Shown here: positions 8,088 through 35,276 of the stretch, piece after piece
How positions within the stretch are numbered: position 1 is the first letter of the stretch
Layout of the letters: each line of letters opens with the position of its first letter
From: Schmidtea polychroa
Taxonomy: Eukaryota
Length of the DNA: 64,000 nucleotides
Direction: 5' to 3'
NCBI GenBank assembly: GCA_044892525.1
Contig: CM097885.1
Coordinates: 6,698,001-6,762,000, forward strand
Translations under genes and position numbers: made by a program
The notes under the pieces: generated by a model
What the model saw: only the letters and a program-made list of their open reading frames with translations
Told to the model about the DNA's origin: nothing
Database searches by the model: none

Positions 8088-8623
8088 AGTAGAGGGATAG
8101 CGGCCCACTAAACCAGCGGCCCTCTAGGACAAAGACATACCCCCTCCCCTCCCCCGCCATTTTATTTTTTTTTCAAGGTCAAATTTTAAACAAAGACATA
8201 TGACTCATCAAGGTCACTGAAACAAAGACCATGACTCACCCGATGACTCATTCAAGGTCATATGACTCATCCGATGCCTCATTCAAGGTCATATGACTCA
8301 CCCAATGACTCATTCAAGGTCATATGACTCATCCGACGACTCATTCAAGGTCATATGACTCATCCGATGACTCATTCAAGGTCATATGACTCATCCGATG
8401 AGTCATGCTAAATTTTTTAAAATTTAAATTCTCAGAGTTCCCGCCAATGGTTTTTTATTATTTAATAGCTCATTCGAAAGATATTTGAATGGTGAGTATT
8501 TGAGACCATCGAAGGTCTATGGAGGTTCAATAACCTTCAAAGAGTTCAATGGTATTGGTTACACTCAACAGCTCACAAGGGTATTATTATTACTATTATT
8601 ATAATTATTATTATAATTATTAA

Positions 8624-8714
<91 letters not shown>

Positions 8715-8754
8715 ATTATTAATATTATTTTTATTGTTATTATTATTATTATTA

Positions 8755-8851
<97 letters not shown>

Positions 8852-8859
8852 TTTATTAC

Positions 8860-8939
<80 letters not shown>

Positions 8940-10795
8940 TTTATTTAAAAAATGTTTAAACTTGAAAACTATCACATGTTTTCAAAATAATAATAAAAAT
9001 ACAAATATTAAAATTATTATTACGATTATACTGCTGCCGTAATTTTTTTGCTGCAACTTTTGATTACGCAATTTTTCAGACTATAGTGAAGGGGTCTCGA
9101 TGGTCCTGGAATTTTCAATACAAAAAAATTTTTTCAATACAAAAACGATGGTCCTGGAATTTTCAATACAAAAAAATTTTTTCTATACAAAAACGATGGT
9201 CCTGGGATTTTCAATACAAAAAAATTTTTTCTATACAAAAACGATGGTCCTGGGATTTTCAATACAAATAAAATTTTTTCAATACAAAAAGGTGGTCTCA
9301 CTAAAAAAGCATGGATTTTTCAGACTATAGTGAGGTGAGTCTCTTGGTCCTGGGATTTTCAATACAAAAAAAAATTTTTCTATACAAAAACGATGGTCCT
9401 GGGATTTTCAATACAAAAAAAAATTTTTCTATACAAAAATCCGACTACCAATAAAAAAGCATGGATTATTCACGCTATAGTGAAGGGGTCTCGATGGTCC
9501 TGGGATTTTCAATACAAATAAATTTTTTTCAATAGAAAAAGGTGGTCTAATCTAAAAAAGCCAAGGATTTTTCAGACTATAGTGAGGCGGTCTCGATGGT
9601 CCTGAGATTTTCAATACAAATAAAATTTTTTCAATACAAAAACGATGGTCCTGGGATTTTCAATACAAATAAAATTTTTTCAATAGAAAAAGGTGGTCTA
9701 CACTAAAAAAGCCAAGGATTTTTCAGACTATAGTGAGGGGGTCTCGATGGTCCTGAGAAATAGGTGGTCTACACTAAAAAAGCCAAGGATTTTTCAGACT
9801 ATAGTGAGGCGGTCTCGATGGTCCTGAGATTTTCAATACAAATAAAATTTTTTCAATACAAAAACGATGGTCCTGGAATTTTCAATACAAATAAAATTTT
9901 TTCAATACAAAAACGATGGTCCTGGGATTTTCAATACAAATAAAATTTTTTCAATAGAAAAAGGTGGTCTACACTAAAAAGCCAAGGATTTTTCAGACTA
10001 TAGTGAGGTGAGTCTCCTTGGTCCTGAGAAATAGGTGGTCTACACTAAAAAACGTGTTAAATTTTTCAATTAAAGTAAATAATGGTTCTAAAAAATTAAA
10101 TTAAAGTAAATAATGGTCCTAAAAAATTAAATTATAGTAAATAATGGTCCAAATTTTAAAATTAAAGTAAATTATGGTCCTAAAAAATTAAATTAAATAA
10201 TGGTCCTAAAAAATTAAATCAAAGTAAATTATGGTCCTAAAAATTTAATTAAGGTCCTAAAAATTAAATTAAAGTAAATTAAGGTTCTAAAAATTAAATT
10301 AAAGTAAATAATGGTCCAAATTTTTCAATTAAAGTAAATAATGGTCCTAAAAATTAAATTAAAGTAAATTAAGGTTCTAAATTTTAAATTAAAGTAAATT
10401 AAGGTTCTAAAAAATTAAATTAAAGTTAATTAAGGTCTAAATTTTTAAATTAAGTAATCAATGGTAAAAAATTTTAAATAAGTAAATTAAAGTAATAATT
10501 TTTAAATTAAGTAATCAATGGTAAAAAAAAAAATTTAAATAAGTAAATTAAAGTAAGATTTTAAAATTTATTAACAAAAAATAGAAGGTGTTTGAGAATT
10601 GAAATTTTTTAATGAAAATTTTTATGGAATAATTTTTTTAAGTAATTTTTTAATGGAAATTTTTATGGAATAATTTTTTTTTAAGTAATTTTTAATGGAA
10701 ATTTTTATGAAATATTTTTCAACGATAAATTTAGATGGAAAAATTTAAGATAATTTCAATGAAATATTTTTCAAAGTCAAATGAAAATTTAAATG

Positions 10796-10839
<44 letters not shown>

Positions 10840-10914
10840 TATCAACCAAATACATAAAAATGAACTAGACACATAAAAATCTACCAAATAACAAATGTAA
10901 AGATATAAAATTTA
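8088..10914. repeat. Left terminal inverted repeat (~2.8 kb, with internal tandem arrays)
   Basis: Block-by-block reverse-complement match to 24275-27126: 31-bp array, (TTA)n, GGTCCTGGGATTTTCAATACAAA array, AAAGTAAATTA array, CAACCAAATACATAAAAATGAACTAGACAC. Confidence 0.9.
8198..8407. repeat. 31-bp tandem array CATATGACTCATCCGATGACTCATTCAAGGT (about 5 units)
   Basis: Directly visible. The mirror array of about 7 units is at 26743-26982. Confidence 0.9.
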
Positions 10915-13900
10915 GTCAATAAAATTAGTCCTCATCGGACAAAATAACGTCATCGATATCGATGTCATCTTCTTCATTAAATTCTTCCTCATCTTCTCCA
11001 TCATTTGTCCATCATTTTCTGAAACATCTTCTCCAACATTTTCTGAAACATTTTCTGCAACAATTTCTCCAACATTTTCTCCAATATTTAATTCACTTAA
11101 TCTTACATGCCCATATGCAAGACTAGCATTTTTCCCCACCCAAACCCTTTTGTCATCTTTGTTAGTTAGTGCTATTTTTGTGTTTTTAATTGTAAAAATT
11201 TGATGATTTTTGCTTGTTATTTTAGTCTGAGGAACCGAAAAAATCTGGTTAGTGTTATAACAATCCAGGTATGACTGATGTTTTATGTCACTACCTTTCA
11301 ATGTTACACCTTTAGCCTTTTTTGTTTCCTCATCACCCAACAAGCTATAACATTTAGGTCTAAGAAAAACCCACTCCTTATATTTAAGACCTTTATTCTC
11401 GTCTTTGAACTTTCCAATGACAGAATCAAGGTTCTTACTATATAAGGAATGACAACTATTGTAATTGGAAGTATCCAATAAATTATCTCGAACCATTGCA
11501 GGTAAAAGAACCTCAAGTTTGCAGTTAATGACTTCGAGGAAAAAAGAATCTGTATCACCTGCAACGATATTAATTTTACAATTAAACTCATTGCGAAATG
11601 ATTCCAGATCCTTATATTGCAATTCATACATTCTAAGTTTAGATAGATCAAGTACAGATTGACCAATGTAACTCGGTCTATCTAAACATATAGAATCTGA
11701 ATTCAATAGTGCTGCAATTAAATTATCTGCTATTTTAATAGATTTTTTAAAAGTCGGTTTTGACGAATATTTAACTAATTTACCGGCAGTTGTACAAAGA
11801 CGAAGATTCATTCTTCTCTTTAAATTTTCAACTGTTTTGCCGTATAAACTATTATTTTGCAATTTATAATAATTTTTATCTAAGTTATTTACGCTTTTTG
11901 ATCTTAATTCGGTATTTGTATCTATATATTTTTTAAAAATTGGTGATTGCTTAAATCTTACACCCTATTTACACGTGTTACTTTAACACCAAGTTCTAAA
12001 TATAATTTTAATAATCTCCAATGAATAACATAATTAGATTTTGGAAGATGAGTTAATAATAATTTTTCAACCTTAGACCCAGCAGGTTTCATTTTTTCAG
12101 CAGCTACAGGGAAATCATCCAACTTATCATGAAGCTCAGAAGGAATTACAAGATCAACTTCAAGTGTGTATCCATAAGACAAAGATTCAAGATTTAAATT
12201 CCTACATTCATCCATTATTTTATCAAATCCATCAAGAACCCAACAAAATTCGCCACAAGGTAATGATTGACTTAAAGCCCACCCATAAAGATTATTAATA
12301 TCTATATAAAGTAACTCGGTGTTCTCGTCGGTTTTTACGTAATGCTTATTCACAAAAGTAAGACCGCCTCTTATTCCACCCTCATAAAAGCTAAACATTT
12401 CGTTTTCAGTTATGAGTTCAATTGGTTCATTTAAAGACATTAATGCAGAAGACCAAGACATGCCTGGAATTCCGAAATAATTCAAAGGTTCTAATCTATT
12501 GTGAGCAATTGATTTCAACCTAAACTGATGAAAGAAATCAGCCAAAAGAAAACAATCAAGTTTTAGGTAGATCATCATATAATCTAATAAAGTTCTGCAA
12601 TTAGATTCTACCCAAATCTCCTGAGCTTTTTCATACTCAAGCTCAGTGACACCCTCCCAGATTGGTGGTAATTCATACGTAGTTTGTAGAACATCTAAAG
12701 AAGTGGCGAAATTATAAGGGAAGATTCCTTTTTCACTTACTATGGTGCCAGAAAAAGCAGAATTAGTAAAAGGCAAAGAATTCAAAGTTTTGACTGCTTT
12801 AGCCAAAGAATCATTGACAAATTGATATGAATCAATGAATCTTAGGCTAATTTTGCCTATATGAGCAATCAAAGATATAAATTTTTCCGTAGTTATTGGG
12901 ATGCACCCTAAATTCCAATTTTTAAATTTATTTAATCCATATTTAAGTATATGATGCATATCGTATCCCTTCAAGTTGTGAAATACGATAGGCAAAATTT
13001 TATTTATTTTTCTATTTACGTTACATGTGCTACAAGCTGCACCCAAGTATTTGCCCGTAAAATGATCGTGATCTCTAACAGGATCCACGATAGATTTCAA
13101 ACAAAGATAACAAACCGTTGAATTAATGAATTGTTGTTGCTCATTTTTAGTTAATTTAATCATTGGTTTCCTACCCATTTTATAATAAAAAGGAAGAACC
13201 TTATTTAATGCTATATCCTCTATAGCACTTAAAAAACTCTCGACGCAATCTAAACCTATGAACTGCTGATAAGATTTAGATCCGTCAAAGTTATTTACTA
13301 GTAAAAGACCGGCAGATATTGGCATGTGTCGCTGAAAATGATCATTATCACAAGGTAAAATAGCCTCAAAATCGGCATAAACTACGAAAGGAGGAGTTAC
13401 TGTTTTCGACCAGTCAGTAAACTGTAAGAATTTATTTTGAGGGAAAGTATAAAGAGTAGTTCCTAATTGATTGCGTTTGCATAATATTTCATGTTTTTCT
13501 AGTGCGTTTCTATTTTTAAAACCATTTAAACATCGATGACACCATATTGATTGTATGCGTGTAGGACAACTAGTGTTTATGCGGCAATTCAGTAACCTAT
13601 TTAAATTGCTTATAGCAATGTAATGGAAATTGTTCCCTTTATTTAATAAAAGTAAATTAATTACTGTTCCATTTAAAACTTTGGAACGATGTATAATGTC
13701 TAAATGGGGGTGTTTTAAAACGTAATTATCTATTAATTGTTTGTTATTGTCATAAGAAAAAACATTAATTATTAAACCAGGATTTTTGGCCTCGAATTTT
13801 CTAATATCTTTTAATTTCATTGGTAAGTCTAATGGATTATATATTAACTCAGATAAATTATAACTAGATGTCCTATTTCTAGCATAACTACTAACCTCAT

Positions 13901-15047
13901 CATATTTTAAAATAGCTAAAATGCTATATAAAAAACATGAATCGTCGGTGTTTTTTACATTAATTAAGCAATTTTTATTTTTTAGACAAGTAGGTAGTTC
14001 AATGAAACTCTTACCACTTAATCTACTTAGCCTACTTATCTTTGTTATGGTGAAGTGAATTTCAGTTATTTTTTTTATGATCCAGCTACTTCCTAACTCT
14101 GTGATATTACTTATTTTCTCGTTTAGTTCCCTAATGCCTTCGTCAAAAAATGAGGCAGTTAAAGGTTTTGCGTAATTGGAAATATTATTAACCTTTATTT
14201 CCCCGTCTTTTTCAAATTCGATTGTTATTCCGAATTGAATTTTGACGGAGCCTAATTCGTTAATAATATCTCGTAATTTTATAATTAATTGTTCTGGAAA
14301 TATTATTTCCTTTATATTCAAGTTACTTGTATTTAGACTTAAAATTTGATGTGTACCCCTTAAATCTTTTTGTACTATGGGTACATTACCTCCTATTTGT
14401 ACATTAGTAGTCGAAGAGTCGAGTGAAAGATTATCAAATTCATTATTGGGTTCACCTACATCCCAAGAGTCGAGTGAAAGATTATCAAATTCATTATTGG
14501 GTTCACCTACATCCCAAGAGTCGAGTGAAAGATTATCAAATTCATTATTGGGTTCACCTACATCCCAAGAGTCGAGTGAAAGATTATCAAATTCATTATA
14601 GGATTCATCAACTAATCCGACCTGGGATTCAACAAAAGGCAATCCATCATTGGATTCAGCAAAAGACAATCCATCATTGGATTCAACAAAAGACAATCCA
14701 TCATTGGATTCAGCAAAAGACAATCCATCATTGGATTCATCAACTAATCCGACCTGGGATTCAACAAATGTATTTAATTTAATTTTTTTATTAGTAGTAT
14801 TTATTTCAATAGTTGAAGGACGTTTAAAAATAACATCTTTTTTAGAATTGAACCTATCTAAATGTTGTTTATGCTTATTATAAAAGACGCTATATGTTAA
14901 GGGCTCGCTAATCTTACATATGGGGCATATAAAAAAAGTTTTATTATAGTATTTTTTAGAATAATAATTCTCCATTATAGAATGGCAATTATTATGTTCT
15001 TTCGACGAACAATAATTTGGGTAAAGTATACCTAAAAATATATACAT
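10912..15047 (-). CDS. Protein-primed family B DNA polymerase (pPolB) polyprotein, split by a -1 frameshift at ~11963
   Basis: ORF 11958-15047: CFLYSILA/FHY vOTU-like region, VYADFE ExoI, endonuclease-VII-like CYLC..DHDH.TG..CSTCN, FHNLKGYD ExoII, YIDINNLYG motif A. The -1 frame continues GVRFKQSPIFKKYIDTNTELR..KLQNNSLYGK, GDTDS, KAKGV. A second frameshift near 11005 garbles the acidic tail. Confidence 0.93.
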
Positions 15048-16905: not shown

Positions 16906-17284
16906 TTATTTCATTGACTTTAACCAAGCCAAACAATGTTGTCCACATGTTTTTGTTATAGGATTTTGGTAACGTATTCGATTGTATTCAATTGGCATTG
17001 ACATTGATTGTAGTTTATTGATTAATATAGGTGGATAATAGAATCCCATTGGATCAAATGCATATATTTTGTCTGGTTTCACGTATACTGCAAGCCAATG
17101 TTCACCATTCAGATTAGCAGATTGAGTATTTACAATTATTGCTTTGTTGACATCTAAATAAGGTATTTTGTCTAATGGGAAAACACCTAGAAATTCTTTT
17201 CCTAGTAATTTTCTTCCGATAACATGTATCTGAATAGAACTAAATTAATAATAATTAAATAATTTAAATTAATTCTTACTTCAT
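16906..17284 (-). CDS. Adenain-like (C5) cysteine maturation protease, two exons (17284-17280, 17239-16906)
   Basis: ATGAA|GTAAGA...TTTAG|T, a 40-nt intron. Product MNSIQI..FLGVFPLDKIP..IIVNTQ..GEHWLAV..FDPMG..YQ..TCGQHCL has the His-Asp-Gln-Cys catalytic set. Missed by the ORF track. Confidence 0.9.
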
Positions 17285-17318: not shown

Positions 17319-18542
17319 TTATACCAAAACAGTACGAGTAGATGTAATTTGAATTTCTTTTTCAAAAACTCCATATACGATTACAGAAACAGCTTCAGTA
17401 AGTGAAGATGCGAATTTAATATCTAATCGCAAATTTCCACTTTGTGGTAACTGACTTTGATGAAGATCAAAATCTGGTGCCAATACGAATGTAAAGAATG
17501 GATACTTGCTCTTAAAATCAGACATGGTGATACCACAATTCATATTTTTATTTAGATAACCCATATTTCTAATAATCGATTGCATATAACTTGTACTATA
17601 ATCATCTTTCTCAAAATCTTGACTATATTTTTCGCGATAATCACTTCCTTTACTTAAAGTTATGGACTTGACATTAAAGTGATCAAATAAAGAAAATGAT
17701 TCTGAAAACGATCCACTAAATCTTTTACTAGATTGAAATGCAACAAGTATAAAATTAGGTAGTCGTCTATCTCCAAATATTTGTTCTTTATAAAAAGAGG
17801 AAGAACCAATAGGTAATGAGAAATCAACAACTTCTTTGCTTCTTAAAGGATAAATTGCATTTTTGGTAGACAGACCAATTTGATGTCCTGCCAAAACCGA
17901 TGGTTCAACACGAACTCTTCTAACCATTAATTTTGCGTCTAATAATAAAATTTTCGGTTCAATTTTCGCACAAGTTAAACTAAGTGTTGGATTTGATCTT
18001 GTTAATTTAATTTGAACACTAACACCTGGTAGTAAATATTTAGGTTGATCAAAGAAATCAAATTGAAGTGGGGAACATAAAGAAAAGGATTTTGATTTTT
18101 CAATCCATGTTTTTCTCGTAAGATCTTTGTTAGTATACCCCATTCCACCTAAAGATGTTCGTTTAGTATCTCCGTCATAATTTATAAGTGTTTCAATTAA
18201 TGCTTTGTGGGCAAATCTATCATTTGATCCTTCAACTTTGATTGAATTAAAAATTAATTCAACATCTTTAAAAAGAGTTTGGAAGAAGAAATTATTTGGA
18301 ATTACTTCTGATTCGCCTAAATTCTCACCTAAATTATTAACAACTTTCAATTGAATATATAACAAAGTATCATTCAAATCTAAATATTCAGTCTGCGATC
18401 CATTTATGTAAAATTGAATCGAAGAAGAACCAGCATCTGTAATTGAATTTCTTGGGTATACATCTTCAAATGCTCCATGTTCAATCACTGCTTGGGGAGA
18501 AGGTCTATCAAAAAGACATAATTCTGATTTAGCACTAATCAT
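17319..18542 (-). CDS. Major capsid protein (Polinton PY, double jelly-roll)
   Basis: KSELCLF..PQ..IE, IQFYI..EYLDLNDTLLY, QPKYLLPGV..IKLTR and GNLRLDIKF motifs typical of Polinton PY. 407 aa, intact. Confidence 0.88.
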   Translation of the reverse strand: MISAKSELCLFDRPSPQAVIEHGAFEDVYPRNSITDAGSSSIQFYINGSQTEYLDLNDTLLYIQLKVVNNLGENLGESEVIPNNFFFQTLFKDVELIFNSIKVEGSNDRFAHKALIETLINYDGDTKRTSLGGMGYTNKDLTRKTWIEKSKSFSLCSPLQFDFFDQPKYLLPGVSVQIKLTRSNPTLSLTCAKIEPKILLLDAKLMVRRVRVEPSVLAGHQIGLSTKNAIYPLRSKEVVDFSLPIGSSSFYKEQIFGDRRLPNFILVAFQSSKRFSGSFSESFSLFDHFNVKSITLSKGSDYREKYSQDFEKDDYSTSYMQSIIRNMGYLNKNMNCGITMSDFKSKYPFFTFVLAPDFDLHQSQLPQSGNLRLDIKFASSLTEAVSVIVYGVFEKEIQITSTRTVLV

Positions 18543-18937
18543 TTTTCAAAGATGGTACCATATCCTTTCATTCTTTTGTTTATATGTTTCTTCATAATTT
18601 TTCGGCGTTTAAGTATTCCGCCTTTTTGTTCTTTATCATTTTTAAATACATCGGATACTTTATTAATTACTTCAGGTAAATGTTGCATCACAGCTGGTAA
18701 TGATTCTTTAATTTCAGAAATTGCATTTGATTTTAAAGCAGGCAAGATATTTGCATTGTTATTTATTACATCATTAGCTGTTTTCATACCAAAATTTCCT
18801 ATTCGTTTAAGAATTGGAAGTGCAAATCTACCTATTGTCTTCAACCAACCGGTTCCATATTGTTTACCAACAAAATATGGTAAATCACCACCCGATTGGT
18901 TACTACTATAAAAATGTATTATGTCAGGATTACTCAT
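18539..18937 (-). CDS. Conserved small Polinton virion/core protein with QxGG protease sites and an amphipathic helix
   Basis: NQSGG..YFVG.QYGTGWLKTIGRFALPILKRIG, then QKGG. Lies between penton and MCP. Confidence 0.7.
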   Translation of the reverse strand: MSNPDIIHFYSSNQSGGDLPYFVGKQYGTGWLKTIGRFALPILKRIGNFGMKTANDVINNNANILPALKSNAISEIKESLPAVMQHLPEVINKVSDVFKNDKEQKGGILKRRKIMKKHINKRMKGYGTIFEK

Positions 18938-19946
18938 TTATTTTACGAAAATGTAATGTCAAGTATGTTTTATCTTCTTTTCCAAATATATATTTTCCAC
19001 TATCATCTCGTATATTGATTTCTATATTGTTTATATATGAAGACGATACAGGTAAGTACATTGGATTCTTTTCAATTATTTGTACTAAATCATCTTTTTT
19101 ATGTTTTTCCACCCAAATACATTTCAAAAGAGGGACCAATGTATCACCAACAATAATTGGTTCGATAATATTTGTATAGATCATCAATTGTTGATTGCGT
19201 TGTAATACTTCAGGTTCTTTAAAACCAATAATAAGTTTGTCAGTATATGCTTCTTCTAATAAACCTAAACTATTAGCTAAAAATTTACTAAATTGAACTT
19301 TACTGACATCATCATCCATTACAATTTTAACGATTTTTCCTTTTTGAATATCAATAGATTTAAATGGACGAGGATAAAAGAGTGATAGTTGATCATTTAT
19401 TTGTGAAAGATCTGTAATGATATTTTCTTCGAATGTATCTGTATACTCGACATCGTAATAATATTGTATAGTTAATCGAATTGTATCAAACTTTATTTTT
19501 CGATTATTTGGAGGAATAGTGATTTGGTTCAAGGTTTTTTTAAAAGTTATTTCTTTTTCTGAAAATCCCAATTTTTGCGCTTCTTTAATACTATCGAATT
19601 CTACTTTAAAAGGAAAATATTTACAATTAATGTTCAATGTATTTCCATCAATATATATTAAATAAAATGGAGAGTCGTGACTGATTGTATATTCATTTTT
19701 TTCTTGGTTAAAGTAAAAGTATTCATAACTTGTATGTAATACACTTTTACTATATTTGACATTTGAATTACTGTAAAAAGGAAAATAATTATACACAAAG
19801 GTAAAGTCCATGAGAGCTACTTCCCATTCACCATCCAAGTAAATAGGATTTTGAAATTCAACATTAAATTTACCAGCTTCATTATTTGGATGAGTCTGAG
19901 GACAACTATTAGAAGGTAAATTCACATAAAAATCTTTTTTAATCAT
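18930..19946 (-). CDS. Minor capsid protein (penton) paralogue 2
   Basis: DFYVNLPSNS..PNN..F.V...PIYLDGEWEVAL N-terminus, IYTNIIEP..VGD..PLL and IEINIRDDSG..LTLHFRK C-terminus. Confidence 0.85.
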   Translation of the reverse strand: MIKKDFYVNLPSNSCPQTHPNNEAGKFNVEFQNPIYLDGEWEVALMDFTFVYNYFPFYSNSNVKYSKSVLHTSYEYFYFNQEKNEYTISHDSPFYLIYIDGNTLNINCKYFPFKVEFDSIKEAQKLGFSEKEITFKKTLNQITIPPNNRKIKFDTIRLTIQYYYDVEYTDTFEENIITDLSQINDQLSLFYPRPFKSIDIQKGKIVKIVMDDDVSKVQFSKFLANSLGLLEEAYTDKLIIGFKEPEVLQRNQQLMIYTNIIEPIIVGDTLVPLLKCIWVEKHKKDDLVQIIEKNPMYLPVSSSYINNIEINIRDDSGKYIFGKEDKTYLTLHFRKINE

Positions 19947-20964
19947 TTATTTTACGAAAATGTAATGTCAAGTGTGTTTTTGTATCTCTACTAAATTTTA
20001 TTAATTTTCCACTATCATCTCGTATATTGATTTCAATGTTGTTTATAGAAGAATTAGAAATTGGTAGATACATTGGATTCTTCATTTCTAGTTGGACAAT
20101 TTCTCCTTGTTCATATTTTTTTATCCAAATGGATTTCAATAACGGAACTCTTACGTCTCCAACAGTCAATGGTTCGATAATATTCGAGTAAATAAACATT
20201 TGTTGATGATGATTAAATAATTTTGGAATTTTTGTTCCAATAATTTCTTTCTCTGTAAATGTTTGTTTCTTTAATCCCAATGTTTTTGTTAAATTTTTAT
20301 CAAAGATTATTGATGAAATGTTATCAGCAAGACTTATTTTAACCAATTCATTATTTTGTATTTTTAAATCTTTAAAGGGAGACGGATTAATTGTCATTAA
20401 CTGACCATGTATTTCAGATAAAGTATTGATGTATAGTTCATCTTCGAAATAATGTTCAAATTTTGTTTTTTCAACAACACTTATAATTATACCAAATTGA
20501 TCAATTGTTTTATCTTCTGTAAATTTTGGTAATTTAATTCGCAAATGATCACTATCACTAATAACCGATACTGATTTTAATCCAAATTTAATAGCATGTT
20601 CAAAATCTGGAAACGTTATTTTAAATGGAACATGTGGACAAACAACAACCAAATTCTCATATCTTTCAATGAACATGTCAACTTCAGGAGTATTTTTAGG
20701 ATTTATTACTTCAAAGGTTCGATTTGAATTATTTATTCTAAAATATTTAATTTCTTCATCCATCTTTACTTTTTCATATTGTATCAATGAATTACTGTAA
20801 TAAGGAAAAGTATTATACACAAAGGTAAAGTCCATGAGAGCTACTTCCCATTCACCATCCAAGTAAATAGGATTTGGAAATTCGACATTAAATTTACTAG
20901 CTTCATTATCGGGGAAAATAAGAGGACAACTATTAGAAGGTAAAATAATATAAAAATCTTTCAT
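19939..20964 (-). CDS. Minor capsid protein (penton) paralogue 1
   Basis: Same terminal motifs as paralogue 2 with a divergent middle. Confidence 0.85.
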   Translation of the reverse strand: MKDFYIILPSNSCPLIFPDNEASKFNVEFPNPIYLDGEWEVALMDFTFVYNTFPYYSNSLIQYEKVKMDEEIKYFRINNSNRTFEVINPKNTPEVDMFIERYENLVVVCPHVPFKITFPDFEHAIKFGLKSVSVISDSDHLRIKLPKFTEDKTIDQFGIIISVVEKTKFEHYFEDELYINTLSEIHGQLMTINPSPFKDLKIQNNELVKISLADNISSIIFDKNLTKTLGLKKQTFTEKEIIGTKIPKLFNHHQQMFIYSNIIEPLTVGDVRVPLLKSIWIKKYEQGEIVQLEMKNPMYLPISNSSINNIEINIRDDSGKLIKFSRDTKTHLTLHFRKIND

Positions 20965-20969
20965 AATAT

Positions 20970-22118
20970 TTATTTAATCAATTGATTTTCGGATATCCAA
21001 GATGGAGTTTCATATCCATGCCATTTAACATAGTATTGTTTATATTTACCATCTTTTTTGGTTTTTAAAATCTTTTGAATTCTAAATATTGTAGGAGCTG
21101 GAATTACTTGGAGTTCTTGTTCATAGAATTTACCAGTGATTGGTTTGTTTTCATGATCAACTATCACATACATGACAGGATTCTGTTTTGTATCGATTTT
21201 AAAAATTTGATATACTTCATCACTCCAATTATTATCAAAGTTTTTGATGAATGGTGAAGAATTGATTTTACTAATTCTTACATGATCACCAACCTTGTAT
21301 TTCGGTTTATTGATTTTTTCTGACTTTGTTTGATTTTTAGTAAAATCAGCAGGTGTTTGTCCTTTTAATCCTCTGTGTGGTGAATGATTGTAACTGAAAA
21401 TAATTTTTGGCAAAACATTTATCCAAGTTTTATTACCTTGATATACAAAATATTTTTTCAAGCGTTTTCTTAAAGTTCGATTAAATCGTTCTACGTGAGC
21501 AGCTTTGAACTGAGAAAATACCGAGTAATGGTTTATTCCTTTGATAACCTCTTTAACTTTGCTGTTATAAAATTCTTTACCTAAATCATATATTTAAAAA
21601 TTAATTAATTAAATTTAATTACCTAAATCCGTTTGTAAATTAATAGGTTTACCATCTGCAAACATTTCTTTTATCGCATCAGCCATTTCATTTGCAGATT
21701 TAGTTTTTGTAGGAACAGCACGAGCATATCTATTAAAAACATCTATACAAGTCAGAATATATTTGTACCCCTTGTTAATTTTTGAATAAGGTATCATTTC
21801 CATCAAATCCATTTGCCATACATCATTGTTTCCAATTGTTTTGTATGGTCTTGTTGGAAAACGTTTCAACATTGGTTTATTTAAACTATATGCTAATTGA
21901 TTAGATAACCATTTCTGAGTTTCTTTCTTTGAATTATTCACTCGTTTTGTTAATTTTTCTACGCCACCAAAACCATCTGGATCTTTTGGGTTTGTCCATA
22001 TGGTTTTTAACTTTTTCTCTATTGTTTTCACTTTTTTCACTTTTGTTTTCACATTTGTTTTCACTTTTGTTTTCATTTTTTCCACTTTTGTGTTGGTTTT
22101 GTGATACGTTTCCTTCAT
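20970..22118 (-). CDS. Retroviral-type (RVE) integrase with C-terminal chromodomain, two exons (22118-21623, 21580-20970)
   Basis: WQMDLMEM, CIDVF, LQTDLG|KEFYN, HVERFNRTL (DDE), YNHSPHRGL, YYVKWHGY..SWI. A 42-nt GT-AG intron at 21581-21622 joins the two ORF-track pieces in frame. Confidence 0.93.
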
Positions 22119-22187
22119 TATTACAACAAGTTGTCAAAATATTAAAATCTACAATATTTTTATTTGGTAATGAACTCTTGATACCCA

Positions 22188-22514
22188 TTAAGAACTTAAT
22201 GATGAGATTGCACTAATTGCAGATAAGACTATAGGAATTAATGCACCCAAGAACCCTCCTTTTTGTTTATATATTATCTTTCTCATTAGACGACGATTTT
22301 TTGTATCAACTAGAGATAAAAGTGATCTTTTATGTCTTTGCAATACTAATCTTTTAGCTTTAGTTATATTTACATTACCGCGGACAACATTTATAATAAC
22401 TTAAAGTAAATCATCAATAACAAATGATGGAAAAGACTGTAAAATTGATATTCGTTTCGAATTTGGTGCCTTTATTAAAGCATTAAAATATGGTAAACTC
22501 CGTTCAAATTTCAT
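22188..22514 (-). pseudogene. Conserved small Polinton protein ending QKGGFLGALIPIV, with one premature stop
   Basis: MKFERSLPYF..DDLL*VIINVVRGNV..LQRHKRSL..KQKGGFLGALIPIVLSAISAISSLSS*. In-frame TAA at 22401-22403. Confidence 0.7.
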
Positions 22515-22543
22515 TATTATTATTAATTTACGCGACGGATTGT

Positions 22544-22696
22544 TTATAATTTGATCCACTTCTTGATTTGTTTCTTAGTTTTTGTACTTTTTGTACTTTT
22601 TGATCCACTTTTTGTTTTCTTTGTACGTTTTGTTTTCTTGGTAATTTTCTTCGAAACACTTGGAAGATTTTTAACAACTACTTTTTTAAATGACAT
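22544..22696 (-). CDS. 50-aa Lys/Thr/Ser-rich basic peptide (candidate DNA-condensing core protein)
   Basis: MSFKKVVVKNLPSVSKKITKKTKRTKKTKSGSKSTKSTKTKKQIKKWIKL*. Fills the gap between the ATPase and the next gene. Confidence 0.6.
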   Translation of the reverse strand: MSFKKVVVKNLPSVSKKITKKTKRTKKTKSGSKSTKSTKTKKQIKKWIKL

Positions 22697-22715
22697 GATT
22701 AATTTTATTTAGTTT

Positions 22716-23339
22716 TTAGTTTTGTTTATAAATCGTAACACCGTTTATATTAAAAATATCAGTTCTAATACGCATATCATCTGGACATTGTTGTGTAAAA
22801 TCAAAAAATAAATATCCATGAGGAATTTTTGTTGCATCTTGGAATGAATCAATCAAAAATTTTCTATTATTTGGATAAGCTTGTCTTGCAAGAAAATCTA
22901 TTATTGTTTGATCTCTAGGATTTTTGAAAATAATTAAATATTGGACATTTAAATTACGTGTTCTATGACTTCCACCTTGATGAAAAAGATTTTGTGTAAT
23001 GAAAATAACTGTAACTCCACAATGTCTACTGATTTTTGTAAATAAATTATTAAAATCTTTTTCTTTATTTGCTTCCTGGTACAGATCATCGATAATAATA
23101 ACATCACCTTGGCGTAATCTAGATGACCAATTTTTATCAAATCCTTTAATTATTGTCATTTTTAATTTACAGAAACTGTTTTGAGTCAATCCATGTTCTT
23201 CATCTGCACCTCGATGCCAATATATTTTATTAAATTTAGATTTAAACATGTTTGATTGTAATAAATTACATACAAATAAAGTTTTCCCGCTTCCACTAGG
23301 TCCTACTATTTGATATACTGCGTCATTTCTTAATTCCAT
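22716..23339 (-). CDS. A32/FtsK-like genome packaging ATPase
   Basis: Walker A GPSGSGKT, Walker B IIIDD, SRH..VTVIFITQNLF, N.QYLIIFKNPRD. Confidence 0.95.
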   Translation of the reverse strand: MELRNDAVYQIVGPSGSGKTLFVCNLLQSNMFKSKFNKIYWHRGADEEHGLTQNSFCKLKMTIIKGFDKNWSSRLRQGDVIIIDDLYQEANKEKDFNNLFTKISRHCGVTVIFITQNLFHQGGSHRTRNLNVQYLIIFKNPRDQTIIDFLARQAYPNNRKFLIDSFQDATKIPHGYLFFDFTQQCPDDMRIRTDIFNINGVTIYKQN

Positions 23340-23389
23340 TTTTTAATTAAATTATTTTATTTAATTTGTTTATAATTACAATAATTAGA

Positions 23390-23866
23390 ATGATCAGCAA
23401 CATTAATTATAGAGGAAGATGTGTAGTTAATGGAATGAAGTTTCCATCAGGAAAACCTCAACATGTCGTGGACAGAAGTGGAAAATATCCAATTTTATTC
23501 TTCAAGAGCGGGAAATGTAGGATAATGGGATGTAAGAAACCATTACAGGAAGGCGATCTCAAATATCACATTCAAGATTTACAAATCCAATCAATTACAT
23601 TAACGCTAGATATGGGTACATGCATTGATTTAAATGCATTGTCAAGGAAAACCGATAGTTACTACGAGCCTGAAATATTTCCAGCTTTACGTATTCTCAA
23701 GTATAACCCCCTATGTGTAAATGTTTTTTCAAGTGGGAAAGTTGTTATATTAGGGATTAAAACATTTGATTATTTTAATCAAATTCAAGAAATTCAGAAA
23801 TTCATTAAATCATTAACTATAAATATCACAACAAATGAAGAAATATTGGAATATTTATTAAGTTAA
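23390..23866 (+). CDS. TATA-box-binding protein (TBP)-like protein, 158 aa
   Basis: Two TBP repeats: ISNI..ILFFKSGKCRIMG and IQSI..IDLNAL..YEPEIFPAL..VNVFSSGKVVILG. Compare TBP YEPELFPGL and LIFVSGKVVLTG. Confidence 0.88.
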   Translation: MISNINYRGRCVVNGMKFPSGKPQHVVDRSGKYPILFFKSGKCRIMGCKKPLQEGDLKYHIQDLQIQSITLTLDMGTCIDLNALSRKTDSYYEPEIFPALRILKYNPLCVNVFSSGKVVILGIKTFDYFNQIQEIQKFIKSLTINITTNEEILEYLLS

Positions 23867-23929
23867 TTAAATTAATTTAATTAATTGTGTTTAAATTAAC
23901 TGAATATCTACAATAACAAAAATTCAAAA

Positions 23930-24277
23930 ATGGATGACGATAAGCAAGCTTACATATTCCAGACTATATTAACGAAGATGGAAGAATTGTTCCCGAATAT
24001 AAAGAACAGACTTTCATATTGTGCTCCGGAATTATTAGCTTATAGAATCAAGCAATTAACAGGGATCAATATAGAAGAACTTATACGAAGACATTTCGAA
24101 TCTGTACAAGAATCAATATTTAAATGCATAGACGATTGTGAAGTATGTATGGATCCGATGAAATTACCTTGTCCGTTTAGATGTAGATGCTGCCAAGAAT
24201 ATAAGATGAAAGAAGTTGTTCATATTTTACTAGCAGAATTAAGAAGAGCTTATTACAAGCAAATATTGGATGAATAA
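23930..24277 (+). CDS. 115-aa hypothetical protein with Cys cluster (C-x3-C-x2-C-x7-C-x3-C-x-CC)
   Basis: Clean ORF with AAAAATGG start context. Its stop abuts the right TIR. Confidence 0.7.
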   Translation: MDDDKQAYIFQTILTKMEELFPNIKNRLSYCAPELLAYRIKQLTGINIEELIRRHFESVQESIFKCIDDCEVCMDPMKLPCPFRCRCCQEYKMKEVVHILLAELRRAYYKQILDE

Positions 24278-26233
24278 ATTTTATATCTTTACATTTGTTT
24301 GTGTTTTATGTGTCTAGTTCATTTTTATGTATTTGGTTGATATATTATTACTATTTTTATTATTCCATTAAAATTTTCATTTGACTTTGAAAAATATTTC
24401 ATTGAAATTATCTTAAAATTTTCCATCTAAAATTATCATTGAAAAATATTCCATAAATATTTCCATTAAAAATTACTTAAAAAAAATTATTCCATAAAAA
24501 TTTCCATTAAAAATTACTTAAAAAATTATTCCATAAAAATTTTCACTAAAAAATTTCAATTCTCAAACACCTTCAACTTTTTGTTAATAAATTTTAAAAT
24601 CTTACTTTAATTTACTTATTACATTACATTAATTTACTTATTTAAAAATTATTACTTTAATTTACTTATTTAAAAATTATTACTTATTTAAAATTTTTTA
24701 CCATTGATTACTTAATTTTAAATTTAGACCTTAATTAACTTTAATTTAATTTTTTAGAACCTTAATTTACTTTAATTTAATTTTTTAGAACCTTAATTTA
24801 CTTTAATTTAAAATTTAGAACCTTAATTTACTTTAATTTAATTTTTAGGACCATAATTTACTGTATTTGAAAAATTTAGAACCATAATTTACTTTTAATT
24901 TAATTTTTAGAACCATAATTTACTTTAATTCAAAAATTTGGACCATAATTTACTGTATTTGAAAAATTTAGAACCATAATTTACTTTAATTTAATTTTTA
25001 GAACCATAATTTACTGTAATTTAATTTTTTAGAACCATAATTTACTTTAATTGAAAAAATTTGGACCATAATTTACTTTAATTCAATTTTTAGAACCATT
25101 ATTTACTTTAAATTTAATTTTTGGACCATTATTTACTGTAATTTAATTTTTTAGAACCATTATTTACTTTAATTGAAAAATTTGGACCATAATTTACTGT
25201 ATTTGAAAATTTGGACCATAATTTACTTTAATTTAATTTTTAGAACCATTATTTACAGTAATTGAAAAATTTGGACCATAATTACTTTAATTTAATTTTT
25301 AGACCCATAATTTACTGTAATTTAATTTTTAGGACCATTATTTACTGTAATTTAATTTTTTAGAACCATTATTTACTTTAATTTAATTTTTAGGACCATA
25401 ATTACCTTATTTGAAAAATGTTGACCATAATTTACTTTAATTGAAAAATTTGGACCATTATTTACTTTAATTGAAAAATTTACCACGTTTTTTAGTGTAG
25501 ACCACCTATTTCTCAGGACCAAGGAGACCACCTCACTATAGTCTGAAAAATCCTTGGCTTTTTTAGTGTAGACCGCCTTTTTGTATTGAAAAAATTTTAT
25601 TTGTATTGAAAATCCCAGGACCATCGTTTTTGTATAGAAAAAATTTTATTTGTATTGAAAATCCCAGGACCATCGTTTTTGTATTGAAAAAATTTTATTT
25701 GTATTGAAAATCTCAGGACCATCGAGACCGCCTCACTATAGTCTGAAAAATCCTTGGCTTTTTTAGTGTAGACCACCTTTTTCTATTGAAAAAAATTTAT
25801 TTGTATTGAAAATCCCAGGACCATCGAGACCCCTTCACTATAGCGTGAATAATCCATGCTTTTTTATTGGTAGTCGGATTTTTGTATAGAAAATTTTTTT
25901 TTGTATTGAAAATCCCAGGACCATCGTTTTTGTATTGAAAAAATTTTATTTGTATTGAAAATCTCAGGACCATCGAGACCGCCTCACTATAGTCTGAAAA
26001 ATCCTTGGCTTTTTTAGTGTAGACCACCTTTTTCTATTGAAAAAAATTTATTTGTATTGAAAATCCCAGGACCATCGTTTTTGTATTGAAAAAATTTTTT
26101 TGTATTGAAAATCCCAGGACCATCGAGACCCCTTCACTATAGTCTGAAAAATTGCGTAATCAAAAGTTGCAGCAAAAAATTACGGCAGCAGGGGAGCTAC
26201 TATCTACCTACTAATAATGATGATAATAATGAT

Positions 26234-26280
<47 letters not shown>

Positions 26281-26286
26281 TAATAA

Positions 26287-26337
<51 letters not shown>

Positions 26338-26447
26338 GTAATAAAGGTAATAATAATAATAATAATAAGTAATAAAGGTAATAATAATAATAATAATAAT
26401 AATATAATAATAATAATAATAATAACAATAAAAATAATAATAATAAT

Positions 26448-26526
<79 letters not shown>

Positions 26527-27126
26527 TTAATATTAATAATAATAATTATAATAATAGTAATAATAATACCCTTGTGAGCTGTTGAGTGTAACCAATACCA
26601 TTGAACTCTTTGAAGGTTATTGAACCTCCATAGACCTTCGATGTTCTCAAATACTCACCATTCAAATATCTTTCGAATGAGCTATTAAATAATAAAAAAC
26701 CATTGGCGGGAACTCTGAGAATTTAAATTTTAAAAAATTTAGCATGACTCATCGGAGGAGTCATATGACCTTGAATGAGTCATCGGATGAGTCATATGAC
26801 CTTGAATGAGTCATCGGATGAGTCATATGACCTTGAATGAGTCGTCGGATGAGTCACATGACCTTGAATCAGTCATCGGATGAGTCATATGACCGTGAAT
26901 GAGTCATCGGGTGAGTCATATGACCTTGAATGAGTCATCGGATGAGTCATATGACCTTGAATGCGTCATCGGGTGAGTCATGGTCTTTGTTTCAGTGACC
27001 TTGATGAGTCATATGTCTTTGTTTAAAATTTGACCTTGAAAAAAAAATAAAATGGCGGGGGAGGGGGGAGGGGGTATGTCTTTGTCCCAGAAGGCCGCTG
27101 GTTTAGTGGGCCGCTATCCCTCTACT
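24275..27126. repeat. Right terminal inverted repeat (~2.85 kb), with an internal second terminus ending at 26212
   Basis: Reverse complement of 8088-10914. ..GCTACTATCTACCTACT at 26196-26212. Confidence 0.9.
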
Positions 27127-33800: not shown

Positions 33801-35276
33801 GGAACGATGTATAATGTCTAAATGTGGATGTTTTAAAACGTAATTATCTGTTAATTGTTTGCTATTGTCATAAGAAAAAACATTAATTATTAAGCCGGGA
33901 TTTTTGGCCTCAAATTTTCTAATGTCTTTTAATTTCATGGGTAAATCTAATGGATTATATATTAAGTCTGATAAATTATAACTGGATGTCCTATTTCTAT
34001 ATTGTCTAACAACCTCATCATATTTTAAAATAGCTAAAATGCTATATAAAAAACATGAATCATCGGTGTTTTTTATATTAATTAAACAATATTTATTTTT
34101 TAGACAAGTAAGTTGTTCAATGAAACTCCTACCACTTAATCTACTTAACCTACTTATCTTTGTTATAGTGAAGTGGATTTCTGTAATTTTTTTATAATCC
34201 AACTACTTCCTAACTCTGTAATATTAGTTATTTTCTCATTTAGTTCCCTAATACCTTCATCAAAAAATGATGCAGTTAAAGGTTTTGCGTAATTGGAGAT
34301 ATTATTAACCTTTATTTCCCCGTCTTTTTCAAATTCGATAGTTATTCCGAATTGAATTTTGACGGAGCCTAATTCGTTAATAATATCTCTCAATTTTATA
34401 ATTAATTGTTCTGGAAATATTATTTCCTTTATATTTAAGTCGCTAGTATTTAAACTTAATATTTGATGGGTACCCCTTAGATCTTTTTGTATTATGGGAA
34501 CATTACCCCCTATTTGTATTATATTTATTCCATCCCAAGAATCAAAGGAAGTGAATAATCCATCATTGGATTCAACAACCAATCCGACCTGGGATTCAAC
34601 AAAAGGCAATCCGTCCTGGGATTCAACAAAAGACAATCCGACCTGGGATTCAACAAAAGGCAATCCGACCTGGGATTCAACAAAAGGCAATCCGACCTGG
34701 GATTCAACAAAAGACAATCCGTCCTGGGATTCAACAACCAATCCATCATTGGATTCAACCTCTAATCCAGCCTGGGATTCAACAACTAATCCGACCTGGG
34801 ATTCAAAAGAAGAAGTATCTAATTTAATTTTTTTATTTGTATTATTTTTTTCTATAGTTGAGGGTCTTTTAAAAACACTATCTTTTTTAAAATTAAACCT
34901 ATCTAAATGATTTTTATGTTTATTATAAAAAACGCTATATGATACAGGGTCACTAGTCTTACATACGGGACATATAAAATGTTTTATTATAATATTTTTT
35001 CGTCTAATAATTCTCCATTATAGAATGGCAATTATTATCATGTTCTTTCGATGAACAATAATTTGGATAAAGTATACCTATAAAATAAAAATTTAATAAA
35101 AAAAAATATATATATATAATTTAAATGAAATATTTTAATAAATGTTTACGCAAAAATTTACAAATTTTAATTACTAAAAAATAAAAATTTACTAAATTAA
35201 AAATATTAACATTTAATTAAATAAAAAATTATATTAAATTTCCTTTAAATTATATAAAAAAGTAATCAATACTTAC
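29785..35276 (-). mobile_element. Truncated Polinton (one TIR + full-length but broken pPolB)
   Basis: Terminus AGTAGGTAGTTAGTGG at 29785. TIR similar to 5562-6790. No capsid or integrase genes found beyond the Gypsy insertion. Confidence 0.88.
31025..35075 (-). pseudogene. pPolB pseudogene
   Basis: ORF pieces 34163-34741, 32076-34202, 31612-31980 and 31025-31615 are colinear with 10912-15047. Private frameshifts at ~34190 and ~31623, and CAA>TAA at ~32066. Confidence 0.92.

Follow-up and report, generated by a model that had tools for sequence, protein, structure and literature searches.

Adenoviruses, virophages and giant viruses are regarded as descendants or close kin of Polintons/Mavericks, and to our knowledge very little is known about how the genes of the latter are transcribed. 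Proteins resembling the TATA-binding protein (TBP) occur in herpesviruses, in which BcRF1 of EBV, UL87 of HCMV and ORF24 of KSHV direct host RNA polymerase II to non-canonical TATA-type late promoters with a TATT-type motif, working as part of a viral pre-initiation complex of several proteins. The TBP-like proteins of Nucleocytoviricota (Heterosigma akashiwo virus, mimivirids, homologues of ASFV B263R) are presumed promoter factors for the genes of viruses that bring their own RNA polymerase. Virophages and polinton-like viruses have a short conserved promoter motif before each gene, borrowed from giant viruses, and rely on co-infecting giant-virus machinery. In the cell, TBP recognizes the canonical TATA-type box TATAAAAG, the yeast protein using two pairs of DNA-intercalating phenylalanines (F99, F116, F190 and F207), and the cellular regulators of TBP use its convex surface. 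A gene labelled "TBP" appears in the Figure 5 legend of a report on MELD viruses with an adintovirus-like PolB (Starrett 2021, PMC8502044); section 3.4 of that report neither discusses the labelled gene nor names the virus that carries it, and the text of one of its supplements does not mention TBP. Compared by label alone, it is likewise a TBP homologue in the map of a Polinton-like mid-size dsDNA virus, and it is probably of the same family as the gene described here or of a related one. Beyond this legend no TBP of a Polinton, Maverick or adintovirus was found in the literature, and no literature match was found for the word TATAAACA together with polinton, subscription journals and figures lying outside the coverage of both searches. 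PMC12220804 was rejected as irrelevant by term search. What is new here is the motif TATAAACAA, which precedes the genes of the ATPase, the major capsid protein (MCP) and other virion-module proteins at a nearly constant distance.

The TBP-like gene was found at 23390..23866 on the plus strand of a 64,000-nt stretch of DNA, which was analysed as a whole and is called the window. It is carried by a 19-kb integrating element which has no RNA polymerase gene and whose terminal inverted repeats (TIRs) end at 8088 and 27126. The left TIR region (8088..9993), which contains internal tandem sub-repeats, and the right one (25488..27126) have the identical terminus AGTAGAGGGATAGCGG, and their arms reach up to 550 nt at 95% complementarity; the gene thus lies inside the TIRs, as had been proposed from the sequence. 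Several hallmarks of a Polinton/Maverick are present, namely a family-B polymerase, an rve integrase, an A32/FtsK ATPase, a double jelly-roll MCP and long TIRs. The protein-primed family-B DNA polymerase (10912..15047, minus strand; PF03175, 75.1 bits, E 6.7e-21) is encoded in two open pieces, 11958..15047 and 10912..11811, and the gap of about 147 bp between them is probably an intron, since the same gap exists in the relatives L041 and L050. The double jelly-roll MCP, p407 (17319..18542, minus strand), was recognized from structure matches of its AF2 model (pLDDT 73.5), which in VIA gave Z scores of 24.4 with the PBCV-1 MCP (rmsd 3.3, 339 aligned), 20.9 with Sputnik and 20.4 with the mavirus MCP, and which matched capsid proteins in BFVD. 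A search of IMG/VR with the MCP alignment returned no MCP relatives. Also on the minus strand are p132 (18539..18937), a small virion-module protein kept beside the MCP in relatives, and p338 and p341 (18930..20964), a paralogous pair which is 46% identical and conserved in relatives. They are followed by the retroviral-type integrase (20970..22133, minus strand; PF00665, 35.5 bits against a cut-off of 32.6), with weak chromodomain and rve_3 signals in its C part, the 50-aa lysine-rich ORF p50K (22544..22696, minus strand) and the A32/FtsK-type genome-packaging ATPase (22716..23339, minus strand; PF04665, 29.2 bits against a cut-off of 22.8). Downstream of the TBP-like gene lies the Cys-rich ORF p115 (23930..24277, plus strand), which is kept in this place in 8 of the 9 subfamily loci sampled and for which a Pfam search up to E 1 gave no family and an Atlas search no usable match. 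As a possible sign of an adenain-type cysteine protease, only a 47-aa ORF with a CGQHC-type word was seen, at 16906..17049 on the minus strand.

This copy of the element is rearranged or nested, since a PolB fragment belonging to another copy adjoins it on the left. The integrase is split over two reading frames near 21600, and a 6-bp target-site duplication was not found at the two flanks (ttcatc on the left, cgctgc on the right); this particular copy may therefore be inactive itself. Elsewhere in the window, a divergent PolB at 466-2133 is a fragment only. The 20 kb of sequence upstream contain another truncated copy of the same lineage.

The ORF runs from ATG to TAA, is intact over its 158 aa and encodes both peptides on which the original prediction was based, FFKSGKCRIMG and YEPEIFPAL...VFSSGKVVILG. 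Of the interval first given for the gene, 23340..23866, the end was correct, whereas at 23340 the spacer in front of it begins and the ORF starts at 23390. The protein matched PF00352 in two stretches (59.3 bits, E 3.4e-16; Pfam cut-off 22.9), and phmmer against PDB retrieved TBPs from E 2.4e-13. Its AF2 model (pLDDT 94.3, pTM 0.83) was compared with PDB by Foldseek, where ranks 1-44 were all TBP chains (best E 6.9e-9, probability 1.00, TMq 0.68) and the first match after them reached only E 0.046; identity to the solved TBPs among these matches was 20-26%. The ORF is a true TBP-fold protein, and the homology that had been read from the two peptides was thus recovered by both profile and structure.

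The fold is reduced at its N-terminus. In the AF2 model, residues 62-157 form a full strand-helix-strands-helix repeat, while the N-terminal half (residues 2-48) consists of strands only (2-10, 25-28, 35-38 and 42-48) and both helices of repeat 1 are absent. Two complete direct repeats, each of strand-helix-four strands-helix, were not found in the protein, only repeat 2 being complete. Similarly, repeat HMMs built from canonical TBPs aligned to the entire C half (60.9 and 69.3 bits) and, in the N half, only to residues 29-50, which correspond to the last hairpin (13.5 bits). A shortened repeat 1 without N-terminal extension had been expected from the sequence, and these results bear it out.

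Compared with cellular TBP (PF00352) and TRF/TBPL, the protein has the same fold and clear sequence homology, and its complete C-terminal repeat has the YEPE[IL]FP and F..SGK..[IL].G.K strand pair of cellular TBP. It differs from cellular TBP in being only 158 aa long, without the N-terminal tail and with a helix-less repeat 1, in standing on a long-branch clade of its own, and in being encoded by a mobile element and not by a cellular locus. Among viral structures in BFVD, the best matches were the TBP-like proteins of giant viruses (E 2.8e-8), with which it shares a virus-type TBP fold; however, these are longer (186-500+ aa in the match list), their identity to it is 9-21%, and unlike their carriers the element has to do without an RNA polymerase of its own. 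The herpesvirus proteins were weak matches (U58 at rank 39, E 0.015; BcRF1 at rank 48, E 0.034; TMq 0.33-0.47), they are several times larger, and no sequence relationship to them was detectable, so that the likeness would be one of functional analogy only. The view that TBP-like factors are a feature of Nucleocytoviricota therefore agrees with the best BFVD matches, but not as an exclusive one, as herpesvirus proteins were also touched and a MELD virus map bears a "TBP" label (PMC8502044).

In an alignment of 72 sequences of the TBP-like family, ten residues were invariant (Y7, F38, C43, M46, G47, E95, F97, C109, N111 and F113), and E93, P94 and F18 were at least 90% conserved. Three of the four intercalating-phenylalanine positions of TBP have aligned counterparts in F38, F97 and F113; F18 has no alignment to the first phenylalanine of repeat 1, though it is at least 90% conserved. 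The stirrup motif YEPE[IL]F is conserved in the family at the same level of at least 90%. We consider it probable that the gene encodes a functional, element-borne minimal TBP, long-standing in one Polinton/Maverick lineage, which directs host RNA polymerase II to the promoters of the element. Such a protein would bind and bend AT-rich promoter DNA through its conserved concave face and would recruit host TFIIB and RNA polymerase II through the C-terminal stirrup motif, and because both helices of the first repeat are lost, the convex surface used by cellular TBP regulators would no longer be offered. If this is true, a naturally minimised TBP, with one full repeat and a strand-only half, would be added to the structural repertoire. 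The same features could also be read as those of a decoy with dominant-negative action: a crippled TBP would occupy TATA boxes or titrate TFIIB, and would thereby silence the host, rival elements or its own element. With a strands-only first repeat the surfaces for cellular TBP partners are missing, and the DNA-face and stirrup residues are kept, as a competitive inhibitor would need. However, an element without its own RNA polymerase needs host Pol II, so that a general inhibitor would hit its own genes too, and the virion genes have a promoter class of their own, described below, which better fits an activator. A decoy is judged unlikely.

A first look at this genome gave 4186 candidate copies of the TBP-like gene, and all of the 150 that were scored for identity were 98-100% identical. 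Among the weak matches sampled in the same genome, 9 of 10 were diverged copies in which the ATPase and the TBP-like gene are again arranged divergently, and the ORF was open in 9 of 9 sampled diverged subfamily copies, two of which have a shorter C-terminus. Between these subfamilies pN was 0.18-0.31 against a pS of 0.57-0.76, and omega was about 0.10-0.35 for the TBP-like gene and 0.05-0.16 for the ATPase, values which are rough because dS is saturated. The TBP-like gene is conserved under purifying selection, and the copies, the linkage to the ATPase and the dN/dS below 1 that the original prediction called for were all found. Relatives were also found at 56 metagenome loci and in about 100 clusters at 50% identity. 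Homologues of other element genes (ATPase, INT, p338/p341, p132, MCP or PolB) are co-encoded at 23 of the 56 loci; all six contigs above 5.5 kb have linked Polinton genes, and the 33 contigs without them are 1.0-5.3 kb long. The gene order relative to the ATPase takes three layouts among these loci, the two genes being adjacent in most layouts.

In a tree which also included 31 two-repeat TBPs, 7 host paralogues and 1 IMG/VR protein, the 54 short TBP-like proteins formed one clade (SH-aLRT 100, branch 1.88); a grouping of them with cellular TBPs was not found, and the 7 host paralogues fall among the two-repeat TBPs. In its best-aligned part, the C-terminal repeat, the window protein reaches an identity of only 27-37% with three host TBP loci, and at E 1e-3 none of the remaining host TBP loci matched the protein. 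The gene is a member of an old, monophyletic family travelling with one Polinton/Maverick lineage. The scan of IMG/VR with the TBP-like alignment had returned a single distant match, L031 (29% identity), a two-repeat protein of 182 aa on a 44.7-kb contig, which was rejected as a member of the family because it groups with the two-repeat TBPs. An Atlas search with the protein gave only TBP-domain clusters, with unreliable taxa.

A recently captured copy of a host TBP, or a decaying passenger gene without function, would be expected to show post-insertion decay, and omega among near-identical copies is indeed near or above 1 (1.69 for L100/L105 and 0.93 for L101/L102). Against this stand the low identity to host TBPs, a clade apart from all 7 host paralogues, the reading frames kept open in diverged copies, a pN well below pS between subfamilies and the breadth of the metagenome family, which together make such an origin extremely improbable. 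Since the family is monophyletic, moves with a Polinton lineage in many metagenome contigs and has several diverged subfamilies, the wording of the original prediction that the element has captured the gene was not upheld so far as it suggests a recent event. None of the outcomes named beforehand as speaking against the prediction was seen: the gene has a TBP fold, extends beyond this copy, evolves non-neutrally and is not nearly identical to a host TBP. It branches in a separate clade from the host TBPs.

The ATPase and the TBP-like gene are arranged head-to-head, and the spacer between their start codons (23340..23389) is 50 bp long with 47 of 50 positions A or T (94% AT), in line with the near-pure AT first described. 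The only conserved block among the spacers of diverged subfamilies is the TATAAACAA site of the ATPase (23366..23374, minus strand), which lies 35 nt upstream of the ATPase ATG. Seven further sites occur on the minus strand within 18576..22730, with 5' ends at 22730, 22548, 22271, 21044, 20047, 19035 and 18584, and each precedes the nearest following ORF start by 34-153 nt; the ORFs behind them are p50K, a 37-aa ORF, orf84/INT, p341, p338, p132 and the MCP. In the whole window the 9-nt motif has 11 sites, all on the minus strand, against 4.4 expected on both strands, and 8 of the 11 lie in the virion-module block, each in front of the start of an ORF. Those before p338 and p132 are within paralogous coding sequence and are not independent.

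In relatives, where distinct 100-nt upstream regions were counted, TATAAAC[AG] was present upstream of the ATPase in 17/20 and of the MCP in 11/12 regions, and upstream of the TBP-like gene in 0/49, the background being 2.7%; the strict motif was weaker upstream of p341 (3/12) and p338 (1/10). Across 20 loci, 115 motifs were co-oriented with the gene block and 10 were opposite. The ATAAAC core precedes the ATPase ATG by 32-37 nt in 11/16 sites and the MCP ATG by 41 nt in 6/14 sites. Upstream of the TBP-like gene, 23/49 regions instead contain a canonical TATA box (background 9%), which in 21 occurrences stands 40-49 nt before the ATG, and 24/49 contain an initiator-like word (background 7.7%). 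CCAAT boxes upstream of this gene looked suggestive by eye and were rejected, as they are not enriched (14/49, background 19.7%). A conserved TATA-like motif before the virion-module genes lends indirect support to the suggestion that the TBP-like protein steers transcription of the capsid unit, the pairing of protein and motif being known only from co-occurrence in one lineage. No related lineage lacking the TBP-like gene was found in IMG/VR or around the divergent PolB. The motif differs from the herpesvirus late motif. It resembles the promoter motifs of virophages and polinton-like viruses in preceding each gene of a small dsDNA element, but this lineage resides in an animal-type genome and has a candidate promoter factor of its own.

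The first six bases of TATAAACAA are a plain TATA box, and the motif is also compatible with RYAAAYA, the forkhead consensus. It could thus be read by host factors, either TBP/TFIID, which TATAAA fits, or a forkhead protein, which the core ATAAACA fits, while the TBP-like protein bends DNA elsewhere, such as at the terminal repeats in protein-primed replication, in condensation or in packaging; in favour of this reading, the gene adjoins the packaging ATPase in most layouts. However, the near-fixed distance from motif to ATG is the geometry of a core promoter and not of an enhancer, the conserved stirrup, expected to contact TFIIB as in TBP-TFIIB structures, would be needless in a purely architectural protein, and the gene order relative to the ATPase is variable. 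Reading by host factors is therefore considered unlikely, and the preferred explanation remains an element-borne TBP acting at the promoters of the element.

The most likely programme under this preferred explanation, though in its full form we consider it somewhat less probable than not, is a self-contained two-tier one run on host Pol II. A host-type TATA and initiator promoter would drive transcription of the TBP-like gene, and its product, a stripped TBP of one and a half repeats which helix loss would free from cellular TBP regulators, would then recognize TATAAACAA as a core-promoter word specific to the lineage, placed at a fixed distance before the ATPase, the MCP and every other virion-module gene, and would activate these promoters. 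The outcome would be an early/late scheme comparable to those of the viral TBP-like proteins of herpesviruses and giant viruses. If a TBP and a promoter word before the capsid, packaging and integrase genes do work together, a promoter-recognition system of its own would be within reach of even an integrating virus of 19 kb, and one small protein with one 9-nt motif would give a testable handle on the switch from silent insertion to virion production. With both tiers, the element would be the smallest known of virus type to have its own basal promoter-recognition factor and a cognate promoter class.

Among the sequencing runs listed for this DNA, none is recorded as RNA. Contigs from the runs X1 and X2, which are RNA only by guess, cover parts of the TBP-like ORF (23429-23973 and 23450-23614, respectively). 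No spliced joints were found in the contigs of X1-X3, and as the X1 cover is also even across all 30 bins, the X1 contigs may be DNA. The run X3, likewise guessed to be RNA, gave no cover of the TBP-like ORF and showed short poly-T loose ends at 19589-19696 and 22032.

An intact ORF encoding 158 aa, as claimed in the original prediction, is present at 23390..23866 on the plus strand and includes the peptides quoted there; its product carries the TBP domain PF00352 (59.3 bits, cut-off 22.9; E 3.4e-16). When PDB sequences were searched with phmmer, TBPs were returned from E 2.4e-13, and both repeats of each PDB TBP aligned onto residues 60-145 of the TBP-like protein. An AF2 model based on a 72-sequence family alignment reached a pLDDT of 94.3 and a pTM of 0.83. 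In the Foldseek comparison with PDB, a check proposed with the prediction, TBP chains filled ranks 1-44 (best E 6.9e-9, TMq 0.68, identity 20-26%), and the next match followed at E 0.046. A complete TBP repeat is formed in the model by residues 62-157, and residues 2-48 are strands only. Repeat HMMs built from 31 canonical TBPs aligned end to end with the C half (60.9 and 69.3 bits) and covered only residues 29-50, the last hairpin, of the N half (13.5 bits), which agrees with the shortened first repeat noticed originally. The predicted head-to-head placement was also recovered: the gene starts opposite an A32-type packaging ATPase (22716..23339, minus strand, 207 aa; PF04665 29.2 bits, cut-off 22.8), and the facing ATGs are separated by a 50-bp spacer (23340-23389) with A/T at 47 bases. 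Both genes are enclosed, as described, by long inverted terminal repeats (about 8088-9993 and 25488-27126), and AGTAGAGGGATAGCGG is found at both outer ends of the element.

The element holding this gene is a Polinton/Maverick. Its protein-primed PolB (PF03175, 75.1 bits) is open in two pieces, and the gap of about 147 bp between them is probably an intron, since the same gap recurs in the related loci L041 and L050. The rve integrase (20970..22133, minus strand; PF00665 35.5 bits) is broken into two frames near 21600 in the window copy, and its C-terminal part gave weak matches to a chromodomain (20.9 bits) and rve_3 (20.4 bits), both below cut-off. The ORF p407 (17319..18542, minus strand) was modelled as a double jelly-roll major capsid protein (MCP) with a pLDDT of 73.5; its VIA Z scores were 24.4 for the PBCV-1 MCP, 20.9 for Sputnik and 20.4 for the mavirus MCP, and capsid proteins were returned by the BFVD search.

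In the own genome (1012 contigs, 781 Mb), 4186 first-look candidates for the TBP-like ORF were obtained. All 150 that were scored were 98-100% identical without stops, including 39 at 100%. Four identical copies at G000:C1:213934011-213946540 are spaced by about 4.02 kb, a distance that points to tandem amplification of a 4-kb element fragment, not to whole insertions. With a canonical TBP core as query, the host's own animal-type TBP was found (74-78% identical to the query, short intron), together with several divergent host paralogues and many weak matches with open frames of 156-190 aa. Ten of these weak matches were sampled: nine are diverged subfamilies of the window Polinton lineage, and the tenth (L104) is not element-borne. 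Compared with the window copy, the nine loci are 78-90% identical in the ATPase, 58-67% in the MCP and 48-64% in the TBP-like protein; all nine keep the divergent ATPase/TBP-like layout, and eight keep a homologue of p115, the Cys-rich ORF 3' of the TBP-like gene. Between subfamilies the gene shows pN of 0.18-0.31 against pS of 0.57-0.76, and omega of about 0.10-0.35 (with dS saturated) compared with 0.05-0.16 for the ATPase. Between near-identical copies omega was about 0.9-1.7, in line with decay once an element has inserted. The gene is thus neither confined to one copy nor evolving neutrally between subfamilies, two doubts raised along with the prediction.

The host also has a TFIIB paralogue in at least 13 copies, an intronless ORF of 301-310 aa, complete with zinc ribbon and cyclin repeats. 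The copies are clustered on two chromosomes, L112 (C1:23851502-23861501) and L113 being among the loci. At L112 it is the sole ORF of at least 120 aa within 10 kb, and is therefore not obviously element-borne. Together with six or more TBP paralogues, these TFIIB copies suggest that the basal transcription factor set of the host is expanded.

In an index of 5.8 billion proteins, 123 of 140 candidates were relatives (34-68% identical, mostly 144-160 aa), all except P0099 having PF00352. An exhaustive representative search gave 1016 matches at E up to 1e-3, about 100 of which were short proteins matched in one stretch and ranked before the canonical two-stretch TBPs. Among the 58 members listed for nine close clusters, neither an NCBI nor a UniRef entry occurred, and none had an informative name. 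Homologues of ATPase, integrase, p338/p341, p132, MCP or PolB are also encoded at 23 of 56 metagenome loci with a relative; such linkage was seen in all six contigs longer than 5.5 kb, and the 33 contigs without it are 1.0-5.3 kb long. Three gene orders occur: in one the TBP-like gene lies 5' of the ATPase and in its orientation, in the second the two genes are divergent, and in the third the TBP-like gene lies 3' of the MCP. A quick IQ-TREE (93 rows, 179 columns) was built from six own-genome element copies, 48 short members of 130-200 aa hand-picked to span the hit lists, 31 two-repeat TBPs from the exhaustive search, seven host paralogues and a single IMG/VR match. A branch of length 1.88 (SH-aLRT 100) set all 54 short proteins apart, and all seven host paralogues lay outside this group, among eukaryotic two-repeat TBPs, which speaks against near identity to a host TBP. 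Because of this split, the capture from a cellular TBP is placed by the tree as old, and the gene has moved since then with the window Polinton lineage. The predicted capture by a Polinton therefore holds for the presence of the gene, but not as a recent event. A conserved, selected TBP-fold gene belongs to the gene set of one Polinton lineage, and a passenger gene or recent capture is contradicted by the diverged subfamilies, pN < pS and the separate clade. The IMG/VR match, on the viral contig L031 (44.7 kb, GC 0.47), is a 182-aa two-repeat TBP, which groups with the two-repeat TBPs outside the Polinton family.

F38, F97 and F113 are invariant in the family and align with the intercalating-Phe positions of TBP, as defined in yeast TBP; F18 is conserved at 90% or more, and no placement on the TBP Phe positions was obtained for it. 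The stirrup word YEPE[IL]F, which contacts TFIIB in cellular TBP, is likewise conserved at 90% or more. Since these residues are retained, the TBP-like protein would bind AT-rich promoter DNA and recruit host TFIIB and Pol II, as judged from TBP structures. Cellular TBP regulators use a surface formed by the repeat 1 helices, and loss of these helices would remove it. We lean towards the protein being a transcription initiation factor that the element encodes for its own promoters; a main rival is that it is a decoy.

Across subfamilies with saturated synonymous sites, the ATPase/TBP-like spacer keeps a single conserved block, TTGTTTATA; on the strand of the ATPase the block is TATAAACAA. There are 11 TATAAACAA sites in the window, all on the minus strand, against 4.4 expected on both strands of the whole window; 11 sites were reached in 2 of 100 shuffles. 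Eight lie within a 5-kb virion-module block, each at 34-153 nt before the ORF start that follows it (ATPase 35, p50K 34, a 37-aa ORF 34, orf84/INT 83/153, p341 80, p338 101, p132 98, MCP 42). Start and stop codons overlap at p341/p338, p338/p132 and p132/MCP, so that the downstream gene's motif sits within upstream coding sequence; the sites before p338 and p132 are in paralogous coding sequence and non-independent. In 20 related loci (not dereplicated), 115 occurrences of TATAAAC[AG] were co-oriented with the gene block and 10 opposite. Among distinct 100-nt upstream regions (strict-motif background 2.7%, from random 100-nt windows of these loci), it preceded the ATPase in 17/20 (19/20 with a looser first base), MCP in 11/12, p132 in 6/12 (11/12 within 160 nt), p341 in 3/12 (10/12 loose) and p338 in 1/10 (8/10 loose), compared with 0/49 regions for the TBP-like gene. 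In a matrix of 56 distinct sites anchored on ATAAAC, T precedes the core in 43 and A follows it in 51 and 41; the flanks are uninformative. Counted from the core, the ATPase ATG comes 32-37 nt further downstream in 11 of 16 sites, and the MCP ATG 41 nt further downstream in 6 of 14. The 49 regions of the TBP-like gene instead contain TATA[AT]A[AT][AG] (23/49, background 9%; 21 occurrences at 40-49 nt before the ATG) and an initiator-like word, TCA[TC]TAT or TCATAAT (24/49, background 7.7%), mostly 1-20 nt upstream; CCAAT boxes were not enriched there. As judged from sequence, the lineage has two distinct upstream classes.

If the protein is such an initiation factor, its target may be the TATAAACAA class, a pairing that we propose tentatively from their co-occurrence, the TATA-box-like geometry and the lack of the motif in the gene's own promoter. 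The other main rival of the initiation-factor reading is that host TBP or a forkhead factor recognises TATAAACAA, ATAAACA fitting the forkhead consensus RYAAAYA, and that the TBP-like protein bends DNA for another purpose.

Giant viruses are known to encode TBP-likes, and these were the best matches of the Polinton protein among predicted viral structures (E 2.8e-8). Functional analogues act in herpesvirus late transcription, with a weak structural echo (BcRF1 and U58, E 0.015-0.034). What is new here is that a minimised TBP belongs to a whole Polinton lineage, together with a candidate class of cognate promoters. A 'TBP' gene is labelled in MELD viruses with adinto-like PolB in a figure legend (Starrett 2021, PMC8502044), and one supplement text of that paper does not mention it. 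Per-gene promoter words have been described for virophages and for polinton-like viruses relying on giant viruses, and are not known for elements with their own candidate factor.

As to the rest of the element, p338 and p341 (18930..20964, minus strand) are tandem paralogues, 46% identical, kept across relatives as one copy or two. The 50-aa, very lysine-rich p50K (22544..22696, minus strand), between ATPase and integrase, could be a DNA-condensing core protein. An adenain-type protease is an expected Polinton gene, and a 47-aa ORF with a CGQHC word (16906..17049, minus strand), between MCP and PolB, may represent one of its exons; tandem repeats and no long ORF were seen at 15.0-17.3 kb. The PolB N-terminus (13800..15047, minus strand) has tandem peptide repeats (a 16-aa unit four times and an 8-aa unit several times), a weak Endonuclease VII-type match below cut-off (21.4 bits) and the OTU-like Cys word DDSCFLYSIL. 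No 6-bp target-site duplication was found at the window copy (flanks ttcatc and cgctgc), whose left end is adjoined by a PolB fragment of another copy. Both the window and the 20 kb before it are a mosaic of truncated Polinton copies, with PolB fragments at 466-2133 (plus strand, only 46% identical), 6793-8087 and 31021-35090 (both minus strand), and, upstream of the window, a copy ending after its integrase.
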